A stretch of DNA of 64,000 nucleotides from the NCBI GenBank assembly GCA_009777955.1, contig WRKW01000002.1:5294-69293 (forward strand), read 5' to 3'. Below the pieces are notes generated by a model, which made no database searches, was not told the origin of the DNA, and was given only the letters and a program-made list of their open reading frames with translations. Positions 7,974 through 64,000 of this stretch are shown piece by piece. Numbering within the stretch: the first letter of the stretch is position 1; the number at the start of each line of letters is the position of its first letter. Source of the stretch: Alphaproteobacteria bacterium. GTDB lineage: Bacteria; Pseudomonadota; Alphaproteobacteria; Rs-D84. Both the position numbers and the translations under genes were made by a program.

Positions 7974-9878
7974 TTACTTTTTTTCTTCAAAATCCGCATC
8001 AGTGGCTTCTTGCCCGTTTTCGTCCGCTGCGGATGCCTCTGGTTCGGTTTTGGCTTCTTGTGCTTCCTGGGCTTGTTTGTAAATAATTTCGCCCAGTTTC
8101 ATTGCCTTTTCGGTAAGCGTCTCGGTTTTTGATTTCAAAGCTTCGGCCGTCGCATCGGTCTTTGCCAATTCATCCGCCAAATCTTTTTTGGCAGATTCAA
8201 TTCCGTCACGCGTTGCCGCGTCTAATTTGTCGCCATGTTCTTTCAAAGATTTTTCTATTGAATGAATCGCGGTTTCCCCCAAATTTCGCGTTTCGACAAC
8301 TTCACGCCGCTTTTTATCCGTTTCGGCATTTGCTTCGGCTTCGGCAACCATCTTTTTTATATCATCTTCGGAAAGTCCGCCGTCTGATTTAATCGATATT
8401 GCTTGTTCTTTTCCGGTGCCTTTGTCTTTTGCTGATACGTGAACTATGCCATTTGCGTCTATATCGAATGATACTTCGATTTGTGGCATTCCGCGTGGTG
8501 CCGGTGCTATACCTTCCAGATTGAATTGCCCCAGTAATTTATTATCTGTGGCCATATCGCGTTCGCCTTGGAACACACGGATGGTCACGGCATTCTGGTT
8601 ATCTTCTGCGGTAGAAAATACCTGGGATTTTTTCGTAGGAATCGTAGTATTGCGGTCTATAAGGCGGGTGAAAACACCACCCAATGTTTCAATGCCCAAA
8701 GACAATGGGGTAACGTCCAAAAGCAGAACATCCTTTACATCGCCTTTTAAAACACCGCCCTGGATTGCCGCACCTTGGGCAACTACTTCGTCTGGGTTTA
8801 CCCCCTTGTGCGGTTCTTTGCCAAAAAATTCTTTTACGGCTTTTTGCACTTTCGGCATGCGGGTTTGTCCGCCGACCAGAATTATTTCGTTGATTTGCGA
8901 CTTGTCCAATCCTGCATCGGCCAGTGCTTTGCGGCATGGGTCAATGGAACGTTCTATCAAATCTTCGACCAAAGATTCAAGTCGGGCGCGTGACAACGGA
9001 ATATTCAGATGTTTCGGCCCGCTTGCATCTGCGGTTATGAATGGAAGATTTATGTCACTTGTCTCTTTGGATGACAATTCGATTTTCGCCTTTTCCGCGG
9101 CTTCTTTCAGACGTTGCAGTGCCAGCTTATCCCCCGACAAATCAATGCCACTTTGCTTTTTGAACTCATCGACCAGATATTGTAGAACACGCTTGTCAAA
9201 ATCCGCCCCACCCAATTCGGTGTCGCCGTTTGTTGCTTTTACTTCGAATACCCCGTCGATAATTTCCAGAATGGATATGTCAAATGTTCCCCCACCCAAA
9301 TCGTATACAGCGACAATACCGTTCTTTTCTTTTTCCAGCCCGTATGCAAGCGCGGCCGCCGTTGGTTCATTTACAATACGCAACACATTCAACCCGGCGA
9401 TTCGACCCGCGTCTTTTGTCGCCTGGCGTTGAGAGTCGTTAAAATAGGCCGGAACAGTGATTACCGCGTCATTTATAGTTTCGCCAAGGTATGCCTCAGC
9501 ATCTTTTTTTAATTTGCCAAGAATTATTGCGGATAATTGCGATGGGGCGTATTTTTTGCCCTCGATTTCAACCCAAGCGTCGCCATTGTCGCCCTCAACG
9601 ATTTTATACGGTATATGTTTTTTAATTTCGGCGATGGTCGGACTGTCGAATCGCAAACCCATAAGACGCTTTATTTCATATATGGTATTTTCGGGATTAG
9701 TGACAGCCTGGTTCTTCGCGGTAATTCCGACCAGCTGTTCCCCGCTGGATGTAAATGCCACAACGGACGGGGTTGTCCGCTGGCCTTCTTGATTTTCTAT
9801 TATTTTCGGATCCGCGCCATCCATAAACGCCATTGCGCTGTTGGTGGTACCCAAATCGATACCCAAAACTTTTGCCAT
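7974..9878 (-). CDS. dnaK: Molecular chaperone DnaK (Hsp70)
   Basis: Full-length Hsp70 signatures: [16 protein letters not shown], and an acidic C-terminus. Confidence 0.97.
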
Positions 9879-50693: not shown

Positions 50694-50830
50694 GGCTCTT
50701 TTAAAAGAGCCGTCATGCTTTCCGTTTTTTGAATGAATAATGAATAATTAATGCGTCGCGCAAAGCGCGACACCGCCCCCAACATTGTCACTCCGGCGCA
50801 TGTGGATTAAAGTTTGAAGCGAGTCATTTG
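50694..50830. repeat. Mosaic palindromic repeat (hairpin plus gaatgaataatgaataat, cgcgcaaagcgcgac, and caacattgtcactccggcgca modules)
   Basis: Shares modules with the 12303 and 54610 repeats. Confidence 0.8.
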
Positions 50831-50881: not shown

Positions 50882-53800
50882 TTAATACCCCCATTTCCAC
50901 ATAGTGGGCATGTCGTCGTAATCGCTTAAATTATACGAATTTGAATAACAGTATGCGACATCGTAAAGGCCTGCGTTTGGCCATGCCTGATATATTGGTA
51001 TGGAAACACCATCCTTGTCCCTTGTGGTGGCCGATGATCCCGTAAGATGGAAACAATTTTCGAACGTTCCCAAGTATCTGTCTACTCTATAGTCATCCCA
51101 TATCTGATATACCCCGCCGAACATCCAATTTTTGACATTAGAACAATAAACATCATCTTCGGCTAACCGCCATTCACAATAATTATTTGTTTCGCAGAAA
51201 TTGCATTGGTAACCGTCAAATAGATTATTTAAGAAAACGGTTGGAATGTGATATGCGCCGGATCCATATTGATTATAACAATAATGTATACTACCATAAG
51301 TAAGATTTTCTTCTTCCACGGTAATGTAACCATACTGTACGTTAGCTTCAGTCGGTATTCTGACATCGCAATTGTAATAATAACCCGCGTGTTCTGTAAG
51401 GGTACTGGGATCAAGAATTGTAAAACCGTAGTATTCGCCAGCCTTATCATTTCCATAACAACTATAGTATCCGTATGTTATAGTAACGTCGTTGGTATAA
51501 TAAGCATTCCAATATTTACCATTATTATCCGTGCCATAGCACTGATAAAGACCATATTCCCATACGGCACTGTGGGTTGGAATATATATATATTCACCAT
51601 TTTCATTCGTATCCTGGCAAATCTTAATCTCATAATCCTGATAAACTTCGGTAGTGGTGAAATTTATGGGGGATCCGTTATTGTTATAGTATGTACAAAC
51701 CTTACGTTCCCAATCGTAGTCCCAATCTGTTGTGTAAAAAGAAGTCCAGATGCCTTGTTCATTGTAATGTTCACAAGCTTTTCGATTTTCATCATAATAA
51801 ACATTGGTGGTGTCGAAGGTGATGGAATTACCAAATTCGTCGCGAACATTGGTATCACATGTCATCAAGTTTTCGTTATAATATACATCATTGGTAACAA
51901 AATCGGTTCCATGATTATAGTCATGACATCTGTACGCCTGAAAAACTTCGTCTTCTGTAAAATATCTGCCTCCCCACGAACCATTATCATAGTATCCAGA
52001 GCAATAATATGGCGGATTACTATATGAATAGTAAGAGCAGCTCCAATTATTAACAATATCAAAATAGGATGGATAGCATGGATGATTGCCATCAATACTT
52101 AACCAATCTGAAACTTTCCAGCAATTATAATCACCATCGGTACTAAAATAAAAACTCCACGGTTGGTAGCAAGGAATATTACCATTGGTGCTGAATGTAC
52201 CTTCTGGATGATCTTCGCAATAATGGTTGCCATTTACGCTTAGATATTCATGGTAACCAAGATCATAGCACATATATCCATTAAAAACAAAGCCGTTATT
52301 CATAAAATCACTATAACAGTCAAGTCCATTGTTGGTTTTAATAATATTATTGTAGTTGTAATTACAAGGGATATAAGCACCATTTTCAAGAGCGTATAAA
52401 TAGCCAGAAGAGCTCCAAGCCGTATGACATACATTATGATCTGAATCAAAGAAGCCTTCGTTATTGTAATAACAGTAATCATATTCTCGATATGGATTTA
52501 CATAACGTTCATTGTGTTTTGAACAATTACTTCCGCCGTCATAACTGCTACAGGTATGAACTGAAGTCCAATTCTGAATTCCATCGAATAAACCGGCACC
52601 TATGCTTGTGATATTGGTATTCGCGAAAGTCGAAGCAAACATGCCCTCTGCCGGTGGCCCTATGATATTGGAAAATAGATTACCGGGTACTTTGCCGGTA
52701 ATATTTCTTGCGCCAGAAAATGTGCCAAGGAACATATATGATGCCGGTGACCCGAAAAGCGTACCGAATATATTGTGCGGGATTGTTCCGGTAAGTCCGC
52801 TGCAACCAACAAATGTGCCATAGTACATGGAACTTGCTGGCATACCATTTACCCCAGAAAATAACGGCGGTAATGCATACGGTTGCGAGTTCTCGCTGGT
52901 AAGGCCGCGGCAGTTTCTGAAAGTTTCATAGAACATACTATCTGCCGGTGCGCCATTAATTCCGGCAAACAGGTTTGCAGGAATTGAACCGGTCAATCCT
53001 TGACAATTCCAGAATGTCTGGCTGAACATACTGCTAGCAGCCGATCCTGTAAAAGTTCCGAACAATCCCGGTGGGATTGAACCGGTCAGGCCAGTGGCAT
53101 GGTAAAATGTAGAGCTGAACATACTATTCGCTGGCACACCATTGATTCCGGCGAATAATGCGCCGCCTATACCGGTAAAGCCGGTGTAAGCGAATGTACC
53201 ACTAAACATACTAGACGCTGGCGCACCTTTTATTCCTTTGAACAGATCTTTTGGAATAATTCCCGTTAATCCATAAACATTCCAAAATGTACTACTGAAC
53301 ACGCTGTCTGCTGGTGGTCCATCAAGTCCCGCAAATAAATCTTCTGGAATTTCGCCAGAAAGTCGGGCTTGAGAAAACGTGCCACTGAACATACCAGACG
53401 CTGGCGCGCCGGTAATACTTGCGAACAGGCGGTTTGGAAGTGTTGGGGGGGGAAAATTCCATCCATAATTTTGTCCTAAATTACCAAATGTGTACGCAAA
53501 CATACTGCTTTTTCCCGTACCTATGACACTTTCAAACAATGTTCCCGGAATTTTTCTTAAAGCATTGCAGTAGAAAGTTTGATAAAAACTTGGTATCTCG
53601 GCATTGGTGGTGCCAAGTATTGGGAACAGGCGACCCAAATCTCCACATATATCTCTCATTCTTGTATCCGTATTACAATTATTTTGCCACCATCCGACGT
53701 AATTATGATTTCTTGCGAAACTGATTGCTGGTGTCGAGCTTGATAAATTATATGCCGTTGCCCCCCCACCGATACCGACGGTGTAATTGCCCGGTACCCT

Positions 53801-54496
53801 ATATGTTCTTGAATACATTCTTTCTTCTGTGTCGGTTTTTTTTATCACGGTTATTCCGTTCCACTCTTCGCCTTCTGCTTCGCGATCGCCCCAATCTATG
53901 CAAAATTCCCCTTTGGCTGAAATGGTAAAGTGGAAAAATCCGCCGGATGGTACATCTTCAAGTTTTACAAAAAATTTGGGCTTACATTCGACCAATTTTT
54001 CGATGCCTTCAATTACCGTGGCACCGTTTGTGGCGGTTTCGGTTGAAAGGACGTGGTCGCAGAAATTGCTTCTGTTCGCTGGACCGCCAATATGTTCGTT
54101 TATCCGGTCGATTGTGCATAAAAGAAACTTCATGTTCGATACGGCTTTCCATACTACGTCATTGCCCGCTTCCAATGATACGGGAAAGGCACAATCACCA
54201 TCCAGACACATTGTTTTGGTTGATCCTACCTTGTGCTTTATGTAATCTTTCACAAGCTGGTTATTCGCAATTTGACAGCTTTGGGTCGCGGAATGCAGAT
54301 CTGGTTTCTCATAGATATCGCCGGGCATTACAACGGATGGAATATCTGGAACATTGTTAAGACAATCCGGGGATACGAACCCGATATCTTTTACCACTTC
54401 GCATGTGTCCCAGTCAACGATATATTTCGCCCATGCATGCGGCGCAAACAGTATGAATGACAGGCAAACAGCAAAGAAAAAGGAATACTTTTTCAC
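50882..54496 (-). CDS. Giant secreted tandem-repeat protein (1204 aa)
   Basis: Signal peptide. About 10 copies of a ~33-aa repeat (G.PA.SMFS.TF..C.GLTG.IP..LF.GI.G). Then a Tyr/Asn/Asp/Cys-rich region with ~26-aa repeats (YYDEN...C..YN..G....FTTT.VY). Confidence 0.7.
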   Translation of the reverse strand: MKKYSFFFAVCLSFILFAPHAWAKYIVDWDTCEVVKDIGFVSPDCLNNVPDIPSVVMPGDIYEKPDLHSATQSCQIANNQLVKDYIKHKVGSTKTMCLDGDCAFPVSLEAGNDVVWKAVSNMKFLLCTIDRINEHIGGPANRSNFCDHVLSTETATNGATVIEGIEKLVECKPKFFVKLEDVPSGGFFHFTISAKGEFCIDWGDREAEGEEWNGITVIKKTDTEERMYSRTYRVPGNYTVGIGGGATAYNLSSSTPAISFARNHNYVGWWQNNCNTDTRMRDICGDLGRLFPILGTTNAEIPSFYQTFYCNALRKIPGTLFESVIGTGKSSMFAYTFGNLGQNYGWNFPPPTLPNRLFASITGAPASGMFSGTFSQARLSGEIPEDLFAGLDGPPADSVFSSTFWNVYGLTGIIPKDLFKGIKGAPASSMFSGTFAYTGFTGIGGALFAGINGVPANSMFSSTFYHATGLTGSIPPGLFGTFTGSAASSMFSQTFWNCQGLTGSIPANLFAGINGAPADSMFYETFRNCRGLTSENSQPYALPPLFSGVNGMPASSMYYGTFVGCSGLTGTIPHNIFGTLFGSPASYMFLGTFSGARNITGKVPGNLFSNIIGPPAEGMFASTFANTNITSIGAGLFDGIQNWTSVHTCSSYDGGSNCSKHNERYVNPYREYDYCYYNNEGFFDSDHNVCHTAWSSSGYLYALENGAYIPCNYNYNNIIKTNNGLDCYSDFMNNGFVFNGYMCYDLGYHEYLSVNGNHYCEDHPEGTFSTNGNIPCYQPWSFYFSTDGDYNCWKVSDWLSIDGNHPCYPSYFDIVNNWSCSYYSYSNPPYYCSGYYDNGSWGGRYFTEDEVFQAYRCHDYNHGTDFVTNDVYYNENLMTCDTNVRDEFGNSITFDTTNVYYDENRKACEHYNEQGIWTSFYTTDWDYDWERKVCTYYNNNGSPINFTTTEVYQDYEIKICQDTNENGEYIYIPTHSAVWEYGLYQCYGTDNNGKYWNAYYTNDVTITYGYYSCYGNDKAGEYYGFTILDPSTLTEHAGYYYNCDVRIPTEANVQYGYITVEEENLTYGSIHYCYNQYGSGAYHIPTVFLNNLFDGYQCNFCETNNYCEWRLAEDDVYCSNVKNWMFGGVYQIWDDYRVDRYLGTFENCFHLTGSSATTRDKDGVSIPIYQAWPNAGLYDVAYCYSNSYNLSDYDDMPTMWKWGY

Positions 54497-54559: not shown

Positions 54560-54790
54560 TACGGCCGGTCATTTAGCCGGTAGTCGATAGCCGATAGTCG
54601 GTAGTCGGTAGAATTTTCCGTTTTTTGAATGAATAGTGAATAATGAATAATGTATGTATCGTGCGCTTTGCGAGACATCACCCCCAACATTGTCACTCCG
54701 GCGCAGGCCGGAGTGGGACTTAAAACCGCAACGCAAAGCGTTGCCAACCAGCCCAGGTCGCGTTTTGCGCGATTAGATGTACTTCCCCGG
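54560..54790. repeat. Composite repeat: (ccgact)-type block ggtagtcgatagccgatagtcggtagtcggtag plus mosaic modules (gaatgaatagtgaataatgaataat; caacattgtcactccggcgca; gcaacgcaaagcgttgcc)
   Basis: The ccgact-type block is an inverted copy of 45962-46000. The other modules match the 50694 repeat. Confidence 0.75.
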
Positions 54791-55438: not shown

Positions 55439-55789
55439 ATGGCAGTAATGGAAGATTTGGATGTTTATAAACTAGCATATCAGATTGTTCTGAAAATATA
55501 TAAACTGACCGCACAATATCCGAATGATGAAAAATTCGGATTAATATCGCAAATGCGTCGCGCTGCAATATCAGTAGTTTCCAACTTGGCCGAAGGCGGG
55601 GCAAGAATAACTTATGGAGAGCAAAGGCACTTTGTTGGAAATGCTAGGGATTCTATTGTAGAATTGCGTACTCAAGTATGGATATCTAGAGATATCGGTA
55701 TTATGTCAAAAGAAGATTCGGTTGATATCTTGAATGATATTGAAAGAACAAAAATGATGATGAACGGATTGTTAAAAACAATAAAATAA
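55439..55789 (+). CDS. Four-helix-bundle protein (23S rRNA intervening-sequence protein family)
   Basis: DVYKLAYQ...VLKIYKLTAQYPNDEKFGLISQMRRAAISVVSNLAEG is the conserved core of this family. 116 aa. Confidence 0.75.
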   Translation: MAVMEDLDVYKLAYQIVLKIYKLTAQYPNDEKFGLISQMRRAAISVVSNLAEGGARITYGEQRHFVGNARDSIVELRTQVWISRDIGIMSKEDSVDILNDIERTKMMMNGLLKTIK

Positions 55790-56677: not shown

Positions 56678-59158
56678 GTGAGAATAAAACATTCATTTTT
56701 TGCACTATTGTGCGCCGTGCCGTTTGTTGTGAACGCTGCCCCGGCTCCCAATCCCCGCGCAACCGGCGATCAATCGGTGCGCCAGTCGGCCGACACGGCC
56801 GCACCGTCATCTGCTACGATTCGGAAAAGCATGCCTTCGGATTATGTTACCCGCTCTTCTTCTCGTACCGCTGTACAGCCCCGTGCAACTGCAAACCCCG
56901 CAGTTCAAAGTCGTGCGGCGGCCATTGGTGCCACGGCAAATCGTGCGCAAATGCCTTCGACCCAACCGGTAATATCGCGTCGTGCGCGATCTGCAACAAT
57001 GATGCCAGCCGGGGGTCAGGTTTCCCGCGCCGCTACATCGCGTTCTGCCGTTAATCCTGCGATGGCGCGTTCCGCCACTATGCATGGTGGTCGTGCCGGT
57101 ACAAATCTTTCCCGCGCCGGTGTTGCGCGCGCGCCAACCCCGATATTCGGCGATATGTCCAAAATGGGGGGGGCTTATGCTGCGTGCCGCGAAACCTATG
57201 CCACATGTATGGATCAGTTTTGTGCCAATAAAAGCGATGTTTATCGCAGATGTATATGTTCTGAAAAATTCCGTGAATTTGCCGATACGGAAGACGCTAT
57301 AAAAACAGCCCAAAATATGTTAAGTAACTTTGAAGACGAAAACCTTACTAATGTCAGCCTGTCCGCAGCAGAAGCGGCCAGCCAGTACCAAGCGACTGAG
57401 GGCGAAAAAGCCGCCGCGAAATTCAAAGACAAATCCGCCGCCGCGAAAATGCTGGAAAACATAGGCGATATCTTGTCTGGTAAAAGTAAGCCGGACAAAG
57501 GGGGCGCATCGAAAATATTGGCACCGATTAACTTTTCCGCCGCGATGGATGATATCTGGGGTGGTGGCGATACTTGGGGTTCCAGCAGTGGTCCGGACGT
57601 AGCAGAAATGGAGGGCAAGGCATTGTATGACGAGGTTAATCGCCAATGTTCCAATATGGCAAAATCAGCATGCGAAACCGAAGCGAATTTGCAGATGGTG
57701 CGCAGTGCATACGGGATAATGGTGGTTCAGGACTGTAACGCATACCAGAAAGGTATCAACACGATGCGTGACAAGGTTGTAGAGCGTGTGCGTGAAATGA
57801 ACGTTGCGTTACGCAATGCACGTCTGGAAGATTATCGTTCGCACAATTCGGCATCGGTCAATGAATGTATTGCAAAAGTTCGTGCGGAAATACTTCAACC
57901 GACGGCTTGTGGTCCGAATTGGGAAAGATGTCTGGACTTTACCGGAAACTATATAAACGCAACAACGGGCGAGGCTATATTCTCTATGAATTTGTTTCAG
58001 TTGTCCAGCCTTATCAATTTACCCGATCTTGGTGCCAAACCTGATCAGGTTACACAAAGATATCTTTCCGAACTGGATGCATTCAGGGCAAAAGGTTTTG
58101 TAAAGGGACCACTTGACAGCTGTCGCGATGATGCAGATAATGTGTGGAATTCTTTCAGAATGCAGGCACTTATCGAAATCGCCCAGGCTCAAGATGCAAA
58201 GATAAAACAAGTAAAGGATAGTTGTGTTGCGACCATGAAAGAATGTTATGATACGACTAGCGACGGTTTAAAAGATATGGACGATACTACTGCGCAAATG
58301 TCGGGTGCGTTGTCCGCGCGCGCGGCGAAACAGATGTGCGCGGACAAGGTAGCCGGTTGCGCAAGTCTTTACTTTTTGCCAAGTCCCGGAAATCCGACAC
58401 CGCGTGCATGTGAATTCGCAGCCAATGGAACCATTACGAATGCCCAAAGTTGTGGTGCGGCGGCTCTTATTGCCTTTGTATCGGCGGTAGACGATATTAA
58501 AATTGAAGAAGGTTGCAAGATGGCTTTGGAAAATTATGTTCAGGATCTTTGCCAACCGGCTTCGGGCGCGACGGGAAGAACTTGGCCGTGGGGATGCGTG
58601 TTGCGGGGGATATGGGCAGAGGGTGGAATTGTCGATATGGTTATAAGGCGTGCCAACGATGTATGTTTGGATGTGGCGATGGAAGAACAGCCATATAGAT
58701 ACAGCTATGACAACGATAGCCCAAAATTGATGCAGGGAGATAAAGATTTGACGGACAGTGATGAATATAACGCCAGCGGAGCCATGATTAGTGAAGTATT
58801 AGAGAGAATAATCGACGATATCGAGGGTTCGCTTATCTCGCAGATGCAAAAGGAATGCGATACTGTCGGTGGGGTATGGTTACCGACATTGGGGGGGCAG
58901 ACACTGGATCCTACGTATAAAAACAATGTTTATGGTGGAAGAGAACCGCCAACTGGCACAGTTGGATTCTGTGCCGAGAATAGTACAAGGTTGTTATGCG
59001 AAGTATTGAACGAACAAACGGGTGGTAGCGGACTTGTAACATACAGCAGTGCTGGTAATGAATGTGTGTTCCAAGCGGACTATTACAAATATCGTTGCGA
59101 AAACGATATGGGCGGAATATGGCAGGACAGCAACTGTTATGTGCAACCATTGCAATAA
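56678..59158 (+). CDS. Large Cys-rich secreted protein (826 aa), GTG start
   Basis: Signal peptide AVPFVVNAAPA. Ala/Arg/Ser-rich low-complexity region. Then a domain with more than 30 Cys. Confidence 0.55.
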   Translation: MRIKHSFFALLCAVPFVVNAAPAPNPRATGDQSVRQSADTAAPSSATIRKSMPSDYVTRSSSRTAVQPRATANPAVQSRAAAIGATANRAQMPSTQPVISRRARSATMMPAGGQVSRAATSRSAVNPAMARSATMHGGRAGTNLSRAGVARAPTPIFGDMSKMGGAYAACRETYATCMDQFCANKSDVYRRCICSEKFREFADTEDAIKTAQNMLSNFEDENLTNVSLSAAEAASQYQATEGEKAAAKFKDKSAAAKMLENIGDILSGKSKPDKGGASKILAPINFSAAMDDIWGGGDTWGSSSGPDVAEMEGKALYDEVNRQCSNMAKSACETEANLQMVRSAYGIMVVQDCNAYQKGINTMRDKVVERVREMNVALRNARLEDYRSHNSASVNECIAKVRAEILQPTACGPNWERCLDFTGNYINATTGEAIFSMNLFQLSSLINLPDLGAKPDQVTQRYLSELDAFRAKGFVKGPLDSCRDDADNVWNSFRMQALIEIAQAQDAKIKQVKDSCVATMKECYDTTSDGLKDMDDTTAQMSGALSARAAKQMCADKVAGCASLYFLPSPGNPTPRACEFAANGTITNAQSCGAAALIAFVSAVDDIKIEEGCKMALENYVQDLCQPASGATGRTWPWGCVLRGIWAEGGIVDMVIRRANDVCLDVAMEEQPYRYSYDNDSPKLMQGDKDLTDSDEYNASGAMISEVLERIIDDIEGSLISQMQKECDTVGGVWLPTLGGQTLDPTYKNNVYGGREPPTGTVGFCAENSTRLLCEVLNEQTGGSGLVTYSSAGNECVFQADYYKYRCENDMGGIWQDSNCYVQPLQ

Positions 59159-59180
59159 TAGAACCAAGGATAAAAATGGT

Positions 59181-59987
59181 ATGATGAACATTGCCCGGAT
59201 TTTTGTAATCACTGTTATAATGACAGTTGGCACACCTACTGAATCTAACGCTTTTCTGAAAAAGGCCTGGAACGCTGTCAAAACCACTGTTGCCAATGTG
59301 GTCAGTGTGGGTGGTTTAATCAGCGTGTGTAAAAACAATGACTTTACTCATGCCGGTGAAATGTGGTGCTGTGACAAGACTGTAAGCAGCGGTTGCAAAT
59401 ATAACATCAAAAATAATGAATTTGCGTTTCATGAATTTCCCAATATGCGTAAATGTGTTAAAAAGACTGGGTGTAATCAATTTGATGATCCGGCAGAGAG
59501 AATTTGCGGTGGAAAAACATTGGCGGAATATCAAGGGGAAACAGTATCCAAAGGAAGTGGTTGTTGGGATTGGACACCGAATACGACGGGTGGTCCCGAC
59601 TCTGCTGCTGGTGGTTCTGGTGCCGCTGGTGGCGGTGGTGGTTCATCTGCTTCCCCAGAGGATTGCACGGAATTCCAATATTGGACAGGCTCGGCTTGTG
59701 CCAATAAAACTTCTGTTTCCCTTGCGAATATGCAAAGTTGCAGAAACGAGAGAGAATTTGTAAATTGCGTAAGTCAGCACATGAAAGGCCCACCCGCCGC
59801 AACTTTGCCGACCAGTACCGGAGCCAATGGGTGCCCTTCGAATTCATCCCCTGACTCCAGTTGTGGCAGACAAACTGCTATTGGGTTTCTAAAAAAATTA
59901 AAGTCTGACTCGGGTTGTATAAGAAAGGGCGGTTGCAGATGTAATTCCGGGTATAGGGCATTTTTAAACGCATGCAGACCTGGTTAA
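59181..59987 (+). CDS. Cys-rich secreted protein (268 aa)
   Basis: RBS AAGGA. Signal peptide. Gly-rich linker. Many Cys. Confidence 0.5.
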   Translation: MMNIARIFVITVIMTVGTPTESNAFLKKAWNAVKTTVANVVSVGGLISVCKNNDFTHAGEMWCCDKTVSSGCKYNIKNNEFAFHEFPNMRKCVKKTGCNQFDDPAERICGGKTLAEYQGETVSKGSGCWDWTPNTTGGPDSAAGGSGAAGGGGGSSASPEDCTEFQYWTGSACANKTSVSLANMQSCRNEREFVNCVSQHMKGPPAATLPTSTGANGCPSNSSPDSSCGRQTAIGFLKKLKSDSGCIRKGGCRCNSGYRAFLNACRPG

Positions 59988-61760: not shown

Positions 61761-61850
61761 GGAGACGTCGCATAGCGGTCTAGTGCGCTCGCTTGGAAAG
61801 CGAGTATGGGGGCAACTCCATCGAGAGTTCGAATCTCTCCGTCTCCGCCA
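61761..61850 (+). tRNA. tRNA-Ser (anticodon GGA)
   Basis: GGAGACGTCGCATAGCGGTCTAGTGCGCTCGCTTGGAAAGCGAG, a long variable arm, then GAGAGTTCGAATCTCTCCGTCTCCGCCA. Confidence 0.9.
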
Positions 61851-61940
61851 CCAATTTTCGTTAATTTTTGCAAAGCAAAAATTTAAGAAAATTGAGTGCC
61901 CGCCGTAGCTTTAGCGAAGGCTGGGCTGTTGGAGCATCTT

Positions 61941-62039
61941 TATGTATTTTCAAAGTGAAATTCATCCTGATATTACATGCGTTGGCTATTCAACAGACCT
62001 AAAACAGCGTCTTTCAGAGCATAACTCCGACAGCAAATA
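61941..62039 (+). pseudogene. Truncated GIY-YIG nuclease gene remnant (32 codons)
   Basis: MYFQSEIHPDITCVGYSTDLKQRLSEHNSDSK* aligns with the N-terminal half of the 18918..19163 product (YIGFSSDLKQRIKDHNNGKS). A single-arm copy of the 19186-19289 inverted repeat sits at 61896-61920. Confidence 0.55.
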
Positions 62040-62046
62040 AGAGATT

Positions 62047-62994
62047 ATGGAAATGACTGCAACAATACACTTAATACATGGTTTTATTGGTTTTGGAAAG
62101 ACCACAATTGCGAAACAGCTTGCGCACGAATTGCCCGCCGTTATTTTGACCAATGATGATTTTATGGTTCGGTTATATGGACGGAATCCCCCGGCGGACA
62201 TGTTCCAAAGTTATTATAATCGTGTCGATGATCTAATCTGGGATTTGGCAGAGAAAATTATAAAAGCAGGAACCGATGTAATTATAGACCATGGATTCTG
62301 GACCAAAGAATCGCGTGGGGTTGCCCATAATCGGGCAAAGGAAATTACGGATAATGTTGTTTTCCATAATATTCAATGTGATATAGACACAGCCCGTCAA
62401 AGCGTATTAGAGCGCACAAAAAGAAACAGGTCAGAGCTGACCATAGATGAAAATGCTTTTGACTTGTTTTATCCACAGTTTCAACCGATAAGTTCAGATG
62501 AAAATTATGAAATAATAAACCACGATAATAATCTTAAAGAATGGAATTATGCCGTATACATTTTGCCGGTACGTGAAATTGATGGTAAAAAACAGGTCGC
62601 TTTATCAGTTTATAAAACTGAATGGTATTGTGCAATTGGCGGGCGCAAAGATGGTAACGAATCCCCACGTGAAACCGCCATCCGGGAAATGATAGAAGAA
62701 TTGGGCGACAGTGCAAGATCTGTTATGGATAATGCCATGGAATTTTCAAAGAAAAATATATGCAAGATTCGTGACATTTGGTTCCGTCGCGCAAAAAATG
62801 AAGAACATACATATTTTATTGCCCGGGTATCGGCGGATACGGAATTATCGTTTTGTGAAAAAGATAATCCGGGATTTGAAATTGAATGGTTGGATGTCGA
62901 TGCCTTGGGCGACGCAAATATAATCAAGTTGGATGAAGTGCGTGAATATTATATAGAACATATTATCCCCGCTATAAAATCTGATTCATTTTAA
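62047..62994 (+). CDS. Fusion protein: P-loop NTP-binding kinase-like domain (AAA_33/zeta-like) plus C-terminal Nudix hydrolase
   Basis: Walker A GFIGFGKTT with D-rich downstream motifs. C-terminal Nudix box GGRKDGNESPRETAIREMIEELG. Confidence 0.65.
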   Translation: MEMTATIHLIHGFIGFGKTTIAKQLAHELPAVILTNDDFMVRLYGRNPPADMFQSYYNRVDDLIWDLAEKIIKAGTDVIIDHGFWTKESRGVAHNRAKEITDNVVFHNIQCDIDTARQSVLERTKRNRSELTIDENAFDLFYPQFQPISSDENYEIINHDNNLKEWNYAVYILPVREIDGKKQVALSVYKTEWYCAIGGRKDGNESPRETAIREMIEELGDSARSVMDNAMEFSKKNICKIRDIWFRRAKNEEHTYFIARVSADTELSFCEKDNPGFEIEWLDVDALGDANIIKLDEVREYYIEHIIPAIKSDSF

Positions 62995-63062
62995 ACAATT
63001 TATCAGATTTTCCAAATGTTCGTTGGGCGATTTTCCGGCAACTATCACAAACCCCACAATTA
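62968..63062. repeat. ~95-bp direct repeat, copy 1 (second copy at 63599..63695, about 93% identical)
   Basis: acatattatccccgctataaaatc[t/g]gattcattttaaacaatttatcagattttccaaa[t/c]gttcgttgggcgatt... Confidence 0.85.
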
Positions 63063-63461
63063 GCATATTTGCTGTACAATCTTTTTAAGAAAATCGTCCA
63101 GTTTGCCATCATCTTTCCCAACCCAGCAATGGTCACAGTGTTCACAACTGATTGTGATATCGGGCAAATATGTCAATTGGATCAAATAGTTAATTTGCAA
63201 ATAACGATCTTTTTTATCTAATCCAGTGAATTCTTCCGAAATTCCCAAAAATTTGATCGGCGTTCCTTTTAAATCCACCCCGATTTCTTCTTGGAGCTCT
63301 CGAAATAAAGCATCTGTAATTTCTTCATGTTCTTCTACACTGCCACCAGGAAATTCCCAAACCAAGGGAAGAAAGTCTTCTGAGGCACTTCGCTGTAGAA
63401 CCAAAAATTTATCATTGTGAGTTATAAGTGCACAAGTAGATAATTTGGTTTTTTGGCTCAT
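63060..63461 (-). CDS. Nudix hydrolase (134 aa)
   Basis: Nudix box GGSVEEHEEITDALFRELQEEIGV. RBS AAAGGG precedes MSQKTK. Confidence 0.75.
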   Translation of the reverse strand: MSQKTKLSTCALITHNDKFLVLQRSASEDFLPLVWEFPGGSVEEHEEITDALFRELQEEIGVDLKGTPIKFLGISEEFTGLDKKDRYLQINYLIQLTYLPDITISCEHCDHCWVGKDDGKLDDFLKKIVQQIC

Positions 63462-63598
63462 AATTACCCTTTTGTTTTGCCGAATTGTATATTCGATTCC
63501 TTGTTTTTGCAAGTTTTATTTCGAGAGAGATTCAATTGCAAATTCAAAATAGAAGTGCAATATTCCTTATAATTAAAAAGCTACTAGATGTAGGTGAA

Positions 63599-63695
63599 CA
63601 TATTATCCCCGCTATAAAATCGGATTCATTTTAAACAATTTATCAGATTTTCCAAACGTTCGTTGGGCGATTTCCCGGCATCTACATCTTCGCCA
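63599..63695. repeat. ~95-bp direct repeat, copy 2
   Basis: See copy 1. It overlaps the 3' end of the APH-like gene. Confidence 0.85.
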
Positions 63696-64000
63696 ATGTC
63701 GTTCAAGGTATTGACCATCATCTGGAATTTTTGTCGTCGTGGTAAAAATTCATCACCGTTATCACCGTATCCGGATAATATGGATTTTGCGCCATCGCCC
63801 CAATAATAATGCATATCCCGTGATGGTTCAGCATAATGCGCCGCGCCAAAATCTAATAATCCGGAAATCTTTTTTGCGTCCGCATCAAACATCAGGTTTC
63901 CAAAGTGTAAATCACTGTGGCAGAAAACCGGTTGCACCGGATGTTCGGCAGAGAGCCGTTTATAATCATCCGCAGTTGCCATGATTTTCTTAATCTGATC
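63626..64000 (-). CDS. Aminoglycoside/choline-kinase-like (APH-family) phosphotransferase, C-terminal part (the gene continues beyond the window end)
   Basis: Brenner motif HSDLHFGN. DFG motif LLDFGAAH. Confidence 0.6.
   Translation of the reverse strand, partial: DQIKKIMATADDYKRLSAEHPVQPVFCHSDLHFGNLMFDADAKKISGLLDFGAAHYAEPSRDMHYYWGDGAKSILSGYGDNGDEFLPRRQKFQMMVNTLNDIGEDVDAGKSPNERLENLINCLK

Follow-up and report, generated by a model that had tools for sequence, protein, structure and literature searches.

The window analysed here is a 64,000-nucleotide stretch of an uncultured alphaproteobacterium (GTDB lineage Rs-D84; assembly GCA_009777955.1, contig WRKW01000002.1, positions 5,294 to 69,293), the right-hand end of which carries a gene for a P-loop kinase fused to a Nudix domain, a complete stand-alone Nudix hydrolase gene and a gene of the APH phosphotransferase family. 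The stand-alone Nudix gene lies between two copies of a short direct repeat, each of which consists of the convergent 3′ ends of the other two genes, and we read this arrangement, with moderate confidence, as the scar of a single insertion into a tail-to-tail gene junction that duplicated the junction and left three functionally separate genes.

Genes and direct repeat at the locus

The features that bear on this reading are the following.

62053-62994, plus strand: P-loop kinase::Nudix fusion gene, 313 aa (Pfam AAA_33, 5.8e-18; NUDIX, 5.4e-7)
62956-63044, no strand: R1, first copy of the direct repeat, where the fusion gene has its working 3′ end and stop, and which also contains a non-functional APH tail
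62976-63011, no strand: AT-rich hairpin with a 10-bp perfect stem across the two overlapping stops (inverted-repeat search and RNA folds)
62986-63066, minus strand: 26-codon open reading frame (ORF), MLIVGFVIVAGKSPNEHLENLINCLK, from the ORF list
63045-63595, no strand: 551-bp segment between the repeats, GC 0.35, comprising the Nudix gene preceded by 134 bp of upstream sequence
63060-63461, minus strand (same direction as the APH gene): stand-alone MutT-like Nudix hydrolase gene, 133 aa (Pfam NUDIX, 3.3e-15)
63596-63684, no strand: R2, second copy of the direct repeat, which provides the working APH 3′ end and stop and contains a non-functional fusion stub
63626-64000, minus strand: APH-family phosphotransferase gene, running past the window end to window-equivalent position 64492 (Pfam APH, 2.2e-11 on the in-window part)

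The start codon of the fusion gene is likely the ATG at 62053 rather than position 62047; homologues of the protein, which is identical to P0001 (MCL2017428.1), begin at M-x-ATIHL. Its kinase half is encoded at about 62053-62532 and its Nudix half at about 62533-62994. In the alignment of homologues the Walker A motif of the kinase, GFIGFGKT, is invariant, as are D35, D79, R115 and R121, while the Nudix half has an intact box (G197-x5-E203-x7-R211-E212-x2-E215-E216-x-G218) and carries a family-specific invariant RRAKNEEHT-x-F motif. The stand-alone Nudix protein, identical to MCL2017429.1, likewise has an intact Nudix box, GGSVEEHEEITDALFRELQEEIGV, and its gene is preceded by an AAAGGG ribosome-binding site 5-6 nt ahead of the ATG. 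The complete APH gene encodes 288 aa (positions 8970-9836 of locus L001, which continues beyond the window), and the catalytic residues of its product, H192-x-D194-x4-N199 and D214-F-G216, are kept across 14 homologues. A preliminary description of the locus, which had assigned these domains, noted intact HxDxxxxN and DFG motifs in the APH-like kinase and placed a complete Nudix gene with its own ribosome-binding site between the repeat copies, was borne out on each of these points.

A repeat search of the 64-kb window returned a single family for this region, represented by R1 and R2, which are 89 nt long, have 4 mismatches (96% identity) and are spaced 640 nt apart from start to start. A repeat of about 95 bp and about 93% identity had previously been placed at 62968-63062 and 63599-63695; its existence is thus upheld and its coordinates and identity are corrected, the true starts being shifted left by 12 nt and 3 nt and the true ends by 18 nt and 11 nt. 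When the two copies were aligned together with their flanks, identity fell to background directly beyond both ends of each copy.

As had been proposed, the repeat carries the convergent 3′ ends of the fusion gene on the plus strand and of the APH-family gene on the minus strand, and both reading frames with their stops can be read in both copies: the plus strand of R1 and of R2 reads EHIIPAIKSDSF followed by a stop, and the minus strand (V/D)AGKSPNE(H/R)LENLINCLK followed by a stop. The fusion gene terminates with TAA at 62992-62994 and the APH frame with TGA at 62986-62988, the two convergent frames overlapping by 9 nt (TCATTTTAA). R2 accordingly retains, beside the complete APH gene, a plus-strand stub of the fusion at 63596-63634 (EHIIPAIKSDSF and a stop), an assignment that agrees with the preliminary one. 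The 26-codon ORF at R1, which had been taken for an APH remnant, does exist, though it is not wholly APH-derived, as its last 18 codons and stop are the duplicated APH tail and its first 8 codons are junction sequence; this tail differs from the live APH tail at 2 amino acids, and the ORF is probably not a gene. The AT-rich hairpin across the overlapping stops is perfect in R1 and carries a single mismatch in R2, and may act as a weak bidirectional terminator, a role against which it counts that a consensus terminator scan did not flag it. Separately, a 10/11 inverted repeat (AGATGTAGGTG / CATCTACATCT) at 63586-63596 and 63679-63689 spans both borders of R2 and is without a counterpart at R1.

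The duplication is local, in agreement with the preliminary description. A 72-nt core of the repeat, with up to 3 mismatches allowed, was found at exactly 2 sites in the window as compared to 0 in 100 shuffles, blastn of the repeat region against the window gave no match besides the two copies, and no further copy was found in the 10 kb past the window end. With two copies in these 64 kb plus 10 kb (about 74 kb), membership of a dispersed family resembling repetitive extragenic palindromes (REP) or miniature inverted-repeat transposable elements (MITE) was rejected. The arrangement is also not an assembly artefact, since three assemblies agree on the gene order: it recurs in the 186-kb contig k141_604777 of ENA ERZ27257348; a contig from a second sample (L002) spans window-equivalent 62983-64611 at 99.94% identity with the same order; and in a 216-kb contig of an NCBI metagenome-assembled genome (MAG) the three proteins have the consecutive accessions MCL2017428, MCL2017429 and MCL2017430. 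That L002 stops inside R1, as assemblies sometimes do at repeats, is the one observation that would favour an artefact or a REP- or MITE-like element, and we regard either as extremely improbable, given that the three assemblies concur, that the copies differ from each other at 4 positions, and that two copies in about 74 kb, built of the coding ends of the flanking genes, do not resemble an intergenic element.

Origin of the repeat-bracketed Nudix gene

Because both gene tails are present in both copies, any history of the locus must begin from a fusion/APH junction with overlapping tails. The duplicated segment is local and made up of the 3′ coding ends of the two genes themselves, and a single complete Nudix gene stands between its copies, which makes an insertion scar the most economical reading. 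In the ancestral state, the kinase::Nudix gene (plus strand) and the APH-family gene (minus strand) would have faced each other tail to tail, the final 9 nt of each shared with the other. The 551-bp segment, comprising a single MutT-like Nudix gene and the region upstream of it, would then have entered the junction in one event, and the same event would have duplicated 89 bp of the junction to give the order R1, Nudix gene, R2, in which R1 ends the fusion gene and lies just 3′ of the new Nudix gene while R2 ends the APH gene. Both flanking genes would have stayed intact because the duplicated piece holds the last codons and stops of both, together with the AT-rich hairpin that they share. The four differences between the copies comprise one that is synonymous in the fusion frame and three that fall within the APH reading frame, of which one is synonymous and the others are His/Arg and Val/Asp, so that the unused halves have drifted, the fusion stub by 1 synonymous change and the APH stub by 3 changes of which 2 are non-synonymous; this is as expected under the insertion reading.

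As to mechanism, we infer either that a fragment was captured at a widely staggered break whose ends were then filled in by repair, or that replication switched template to the Nudix segment and then returned to a point 89 bp upstream. At 63045 and 63595 an inverted-repeat search detected no terminal inverted repeats, and the ORF list shows no transposase in the 551-bp segment, in which the Nudix gene is the only sizeable ORF. A transposase mechanism is at odds with these observations and with a duplication of 89 bp rather than a short one, and insertion of a transposon or insertion sequence was rejected as an explanation.

Several observations weigh against this reconstruction, which we nevertheless consider the probable one. 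No pre-insertion allele (fusion, single repeat, APH) and no empty site was found in any search, so that it is parsimony only that gives the event its polarity. The preliminary description had already suggested a duplicative insertion into the tail-to-tail junction, to be checked in related genomes lacking the inserted segment; the insertion survives as the most economical account, and that arrangement was not encountered among relatives of the fusion, the kinase or the APH protein or in scans of JGI metagenomes. At the locus of the closest fusion relative (84% amino acid and 82.7% nucleotide identity; L004), DNA homology ends exactly at the ends of the coding sequence and a purH fragment follows, and there is no APH gene at the loci of the 84%, 76% and 64% relatives, nor does one adjoin the kinase at any of 80 GTDB loci. 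Among APH homologues identity does not exceed 53%, and the APH search yielded no pre-insertion junction; an exact 29-mer scan of the JGI metagenomes for the pre-insertion allele and an MtaB-based scan of them for the empty site each returned 0 matches; and none of the loci retrieved for comparison is syntenic with the window flanks. The divergence of R1 from R2, 4.5%, is high for a recent in-situ duplication and also agrees with one copy having been imported from a diverged relative, and polarising the four differences by APH homologues gave no result because the APH C-terminus is not conserved. To our knowledge, long target duplications of this kind are not well characterised as a bacterial mechanism. 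The functional side of the reading is likewise open to objection, in that fold and profile matches do not discriminate substrates and that the insertion may not be functionally neutral, because a relative of the stand-alone Nudix adjoins a kinase-module gene at locus L035.

The surroundings of the locus bear on two further histories. Two features lie on its left side.

61761-61850, plus strand: tRNA-Ser(GGA) gene (ARAGORN), at the left edge of a low-GC variable region
61942-62040, plus strand: remnant of a GIY-YIG nuclease gene, 32 codons (Pfam GIY-YIG, E 1.1e-3, profile positions 11-34 of 78 only)

GC content is about 0.44-0.47 to the left of the tRNA gene as against 0.34-0.40 over about 10 kb to its right, and a hairpin at 61852-61894 separates the tRNA gene from the GIY-YIG remnant. 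Past the APH gene follow a GNAT acetyltransferase, a His_Phos_1 phosphatase, a Cys-rich 132-aa protein, a PAP2 phosphatase, a GT2 glycosyltransferase, a type II restriction-modification system and pfk. The restriction-modification system (L001 2065-5021, window-equivalent about 68441-71397) consists of a C5 DNA methylase, an N6/N4 methylase and an HNH-type endonuclease (PADLOC REase_II, 8e-70). A second duplication, likewise local and direct, of 44 nt and 93% identity, occupies L001 5552-5595 and 7463-7506 (window-equivalent about 67867-67910 and 65956-65999); the copy inside the GT2 gene encodes KKLKNGGEFNPRER, the other, in a different frame, forms the 3′ end of the His_Phos_1 gene, its last 12 codons and stop (KEIEKRRGIQPT), and the 5′ part of the GT2 gene, the PAP2 gene and the gene for the Cys-rich 132-aa protein lie between them. 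Owing to the GIY-YIG remnant, the second duplication and the restriction-modification system, the stretch of about 10 kb looks like a region that accretes genes piecemeal. Of the features of a tRNA-associated integrative genomic island, the tRNA-Ser gene at one border and the drop in GC are present, and no integrase and no repeat of the tRNA end were found in the 10 kb examined.

The low GC content and the position beside a tRNA gene give the region a horizontally acquired look, which could suit integration driven by homology: a small circular or linear DNA from a diverged relative, carrying the Nudix gene and its own copy of the 89-bp junction, would have recombined with the resident junction by a Campbell-type single crossover, of which flanking direct repeats are the expected product, and the 4 differing positions of 89 (4.5%) exceed the expectation for a fresh duplication. 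Such a donor must already have held a Nudix gene beside the same fusion/APH junction, which merely shifts the question back, and none is on record, the nearest Nudix relative being 55% identical and located beside queC and the nearest APH 53% identical; as 89 bp is moreover short for efficient RecA recombination, we consider this history unlikely. The 44-nt GT2/His_Phos_1 duplication resembles a leftover of duplication and deletion in the same region, and recalls a multi-step origin in which a larger tandem duplication containing the junction was trimmed by later deletions until just an already-nearby Nudix gene stood between the copies. This would take at least 3 events with deletion end-points exactly at the repeat borders, where identity falls abruptly at both ends of both copies, and there is neither a second Nudix copy nor any other remnant of the fusion or APH gene bodies in the surrounding 20 kb; we hold it to be quite unlikely.

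The single-insertion reading thus describes a scar that is real and fairly ordinary, situated in a variable region of an uncultured alphaproteobacterium. It is a clean natural case in which a gene came to lie within the overlap of two convergent gene ends and destroyed neither of them, because the overlap itself was duplicated, and illustrates how variable regions of bacterial genomes are constructed.

Elsewhere in the window, direct repeats of about 45-70 nt (70-86% identity) occur at 50734-50800 and 54637-54705, both intergenic and on either side of a 1204-aa ORF (50882-54496, minus strand) that has no Pfam match. A 116-aa gene at 55439-55789 (L001 17673-18023) has weak Pfam matches to 23S_rRNA_IVP and bAvd, adjoins a CvpA-like gene and lies upstream of two large Cys-rich secreted proteins (56678-59158 and 59049-59987); judged from these matches, it may be an accessory gene of a diversity-generating retroelement.

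The kinase::Nudix family and its neighbours

The fusion was suspected at the outset not to be a common annotated bifunctional enzyme, and this was confirmed. A search of 5.8 billion clusters gave about 13 full-length homologues of 54-84% identity, one representative covered the whole fusion in an exhaustive phmmer search of 1.84 billion 50%-identity representatives, and the fusion was present in 3 of 185,579 GTDB species representatives. In one of these three the gene is split into two overlapping ORFs of 82 aa and 240 aa (L010 9980-10931, in a GTDB MAG), which represents either a frameshifted pseudogene or a sequencing error. Annotations are generic, namely 'AAA family ATPase' and 'predicted kinase/8-oxo-dGTP pyrophosphatase'; no paper combining Nudix with AAA_33 was found in the searchable literature, two surveys from the Aravind group describe NadM/NadR-type fusions and not a kinase::Nudix fusion, and IMG/VR holds no relative that would point to a phage origin. 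As far as the searchable literature shows, the fusion therefore joins two well-known superfamilies in a rare, generically annotated and undescribed architecture.

The kinase domain by itself, of about 160 aa, is widespread in MAGs of gut, rumen and termite Alphaproteobacteria, in which it occurs alone or as kinase-pyrophosphatase (PPase), PPase-kinase, DUF3977-kinase and kinase-Nudix-Nudix proteins, the largest form being a kinase-PPase-Nudix-Nudix protein of about 573 aa; a tight operon of PPase, kinase::Nudix and DUF3977 is also found. A Nudix and/or PPase-like domain is fused to the kinase or encoded within 2.5 kb at 28 of the 48 closest kinase loci as compared to 0 of 34 more distant loci, for which reason we regard the link between kinase and Nudix as real and selected. 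The pyrophosphatase partner, fused to or adjoining the kinase in many gut Alphaproteobacteria MAGs, is a truncated family-I pyrophosphatase-like domain of about 100-115 aa in which the NYGFIP...DG(D/E)xxD and D...D carboxylate motifs are retained and the N- and C-terminal parts are missing; it is encoded separately at L005 7653-7997 and L008 9664-9999, and is fused in L015, L024, L018, L044 and others. The retained DGD/E-x-x-D and D-x4-D clusters are those of family-I pyrophosphatases.

Another observation concerns tRNA genes, directly 3′ of which, on the same strand, the kinase module is located in 5 contexts: 61761-62053 in the window, L008 8847-10004, L010 9710-9980, L020 9612-9998 and L042 9401-9998. 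The nearest tRNA is Ser in three of these, Tyr in one and Pro in one, and in L042 a Nudix ORF stands between two tRNA-Pro genes immediately before the kinase. A rough hand count puts the enrichment at about 4-fold over background by tRNA count, a signal that is weak per locus.

The three genes of the window had been proposed to form one dedicated module for nucleotide or phospho-metabolite processing, of which only a part is supported: the association of the kinase with Nudix and/or PPase-like domains recurs in the clade, and that with the APH gene does not. Physical adjacency of the three genes speaks for the proposal in full, as does one rumen MAG (L035) in which a 46% identical relative of the stand-alone Nudix is encoded directly upstream of a kinase-PPase-Nudix-Nudix gene. 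The closest relative of the stand-alone Nudix (55%), however, adjoins queC and has no kinase neighbour, leaving the membership of this gene in the kinase module ambiguous. An APH gene adjoins the kinase at 0 of 82 other kinase-domain loci, two of which have weak APH-like matches 7-8 kb away, and clustering of neighbours at 81 loci recovered no conserved neighbourhood beyond Nudix and PPase. The APH relative P0070 (48%; L093-L095) is instead encoded between an ATP-binding cassette (ABC) exporter and an ABC-F-type gene with two ATPase domains, about 4 kb from a phage-type integrase, a layout that looks like an antibiotic-resistance locus. Considering further that the genes lie on different strands or have separate upstream regions, and that their present arrangement itself results from a recent rearrangement, we find a single module of all three genes very doubtful.

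What the fusion represents is a member of a clade-restricted family, in which a small P-loop kinase of the PNK/PSTK/6PF2K type is repeatedly joined to Nudix and truncated family-I pyrophosphatase-like partners. This family, from uncultured gut-associated Alphaproteobacteria and with no characterised member, is a more useful lead than the scar, as its substrate, once worked out, could add a new activity in nucleotide salvage, sanitation or RNA-end processing; neither the scar nor the family overturns current understanding.

Likely functions and comparison with known systems

The kinase half of the fusion belongs to the AAA_33 P-loop kinases, with 66 bits against a threshold of 27 and the Walker A consensus GxxxxGK[ST] present as the invariant GFIGFGKT, and fold comparison of the AlphaFold (AF2) model (pLDDT 83) places it in the PNK/PSTK/Kti12/6PF2K group, in agreement with a match to a PHROG polynucleotide kinase (4.7e-9). 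Of the placements put forward earlier, AAA_33 and the PNK-like fold are therefore retained, and that as a zeta toxin (UDP-N-acetylglucosamine kinase) was rejected, as neither Pfam Zeta_toxin nor the structural tests supported it. Both Nudix domains contain the GX5EX7REUXEEXGU box and score above the Pfam threshold of 21.1 bits (fusion 30.1, stand-alone 56.7), and the Nudix half of the fusion resembles RppH, Ap4A hydrolase and NudB.

All NCBIfam matches of the proteins stay under the cut-off of the model concerned, and several specific identities were rejected accordingly. The stand-alone Nudix, with best NCBIfam matches to PRK08999, NudG, NudI and MutT that are all under cut-off, is MutT-like in class and not an equivalog of the MutT 8-oxo-dGTPase (36.5 against 97.9 for TIGR00586, 39.6 against 148 for PRK10776); for RppH (PRK00714) the fusion gives no match and the stand-alone Nudix scores 31.8 against 118. 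The APH protein does not belong to the named aminoglycoside or macrolide phosphotransferase resistance families (best 41.6 bits against 600). No defence system was recognised either, PADLOC returning nothing for the fusion and only a half-length generic match of the stand-alone Nudix to the candidate PDC-S07.

From these assignments we infer that nucleotides or nucleic-acid 5′ ends are the most likely substrates of the fusion, whose Nudix half would most likely cleave a polyphosphate or nucleoside diphosphate-X bond and whose kinase half would add a phosphate, and we rank salvage or sanitation of small nucleotides somewhat higher than RNA-end processing. That a PPase-like domain with retained carboxylate clusters accompanies the family suggests that the Nudix reaction releases inorganic pyrophosphate. 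The stand-alone Nudix would be a house-cleaning nucleoside triphosphate pyrophosphohydrolase of the MutT class, and the APH-family enzyme a small-molecule kinase of the antibiotic-kinase type. A bolder proposal is that the kinase::Nudix proteins and their kinase-miniPPase-Nudix relatives constitute an undescribed class of nucleic-acid 5′-end processing enzymes, in which the kinase would convert a 5′-OH and the Nudix domain a 5′-triphosphate or capped end to a 5′-monophosphate, the PPase-like partner removing the pyrophosphate; action on tRNAs might be envisaged because of the PSTK/Kti12/Pnkp-like fold and the position directly 3′ of tRNA genes in 5 contexts. We consider the existence of such a class rather improbable.

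Among characterised proteins, the kinase half is most readily set beside polynucleotide kinase and related enzymes (T4 Pnk, bacterial Pnkp/Pnkp1, mammalian PNKP, PSTK, Kti12, 6-phosphofructo-2-kinase and gluconokinase), to which its identity is only 12-21%. Compared with the catalytic Asp and Arg of Pnk/Pnkp, the Asp at position 35 of the fusion is invariant and the nearby Arg40 is not; the fusion furthermore has a Nudix partner in place of a phosphatase or ligase domain, and by score nucleic-acid kinases and small-molecule kinases are not told apart. The Nudix half differs from RppH, Ap4A hydrolase and NudB in that its NCBIfam equivalog scores are far under cut-off and in the RRAKNEEHT-x-F motif, a feature of the fusion family. 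It also lacks the Pro 15-16 residues after the Nudix box that is typical of ADP-ribose pyrophosphatases. A comparable pairing is known from the bifunctional nucleotide enzymes NadM-Nudix and NadR, in which a nucleotide-handling domain is fused to a Nudix domain or a P-loop kinase (PMC7824862, PMC9503650), whereas the fusion is without a HIGH-type adenylyltransferase domain and its NRK1 match is confined to the P-loop. With the aminoglycoside and macrolide phosphotransferases (APH(2''), APH(3') and Mph), which provide its best NCBIfam matches, the APH gene product shares the Pfam APH match and the HxDxxxxN and DFG motifs, while scoring 30-42 bits against cut-offs of 205-625.

The scar itself is best compared with target-site duplication by transposons and with the repeat duplication that accompanies spacer integration at CRISPR loci, where a direct repeat of host sequence likewise surrounds one insert and the geometry is that of staggered cuts and fill-in. 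In contrast to those systems, there are here no terminal inverted repeats and no transposase or integrase, no Cas genes were seen, and the insert is an ordinary single metabolic gene. The target duplications generated by transposases measure 2-15 bp, and 89 bp is many times longer. The scar would thus be one case of a type of event already known, insertion between duplicated copies of the target, in which the duplication is unusually long and happens to preserve two overlapping genes.

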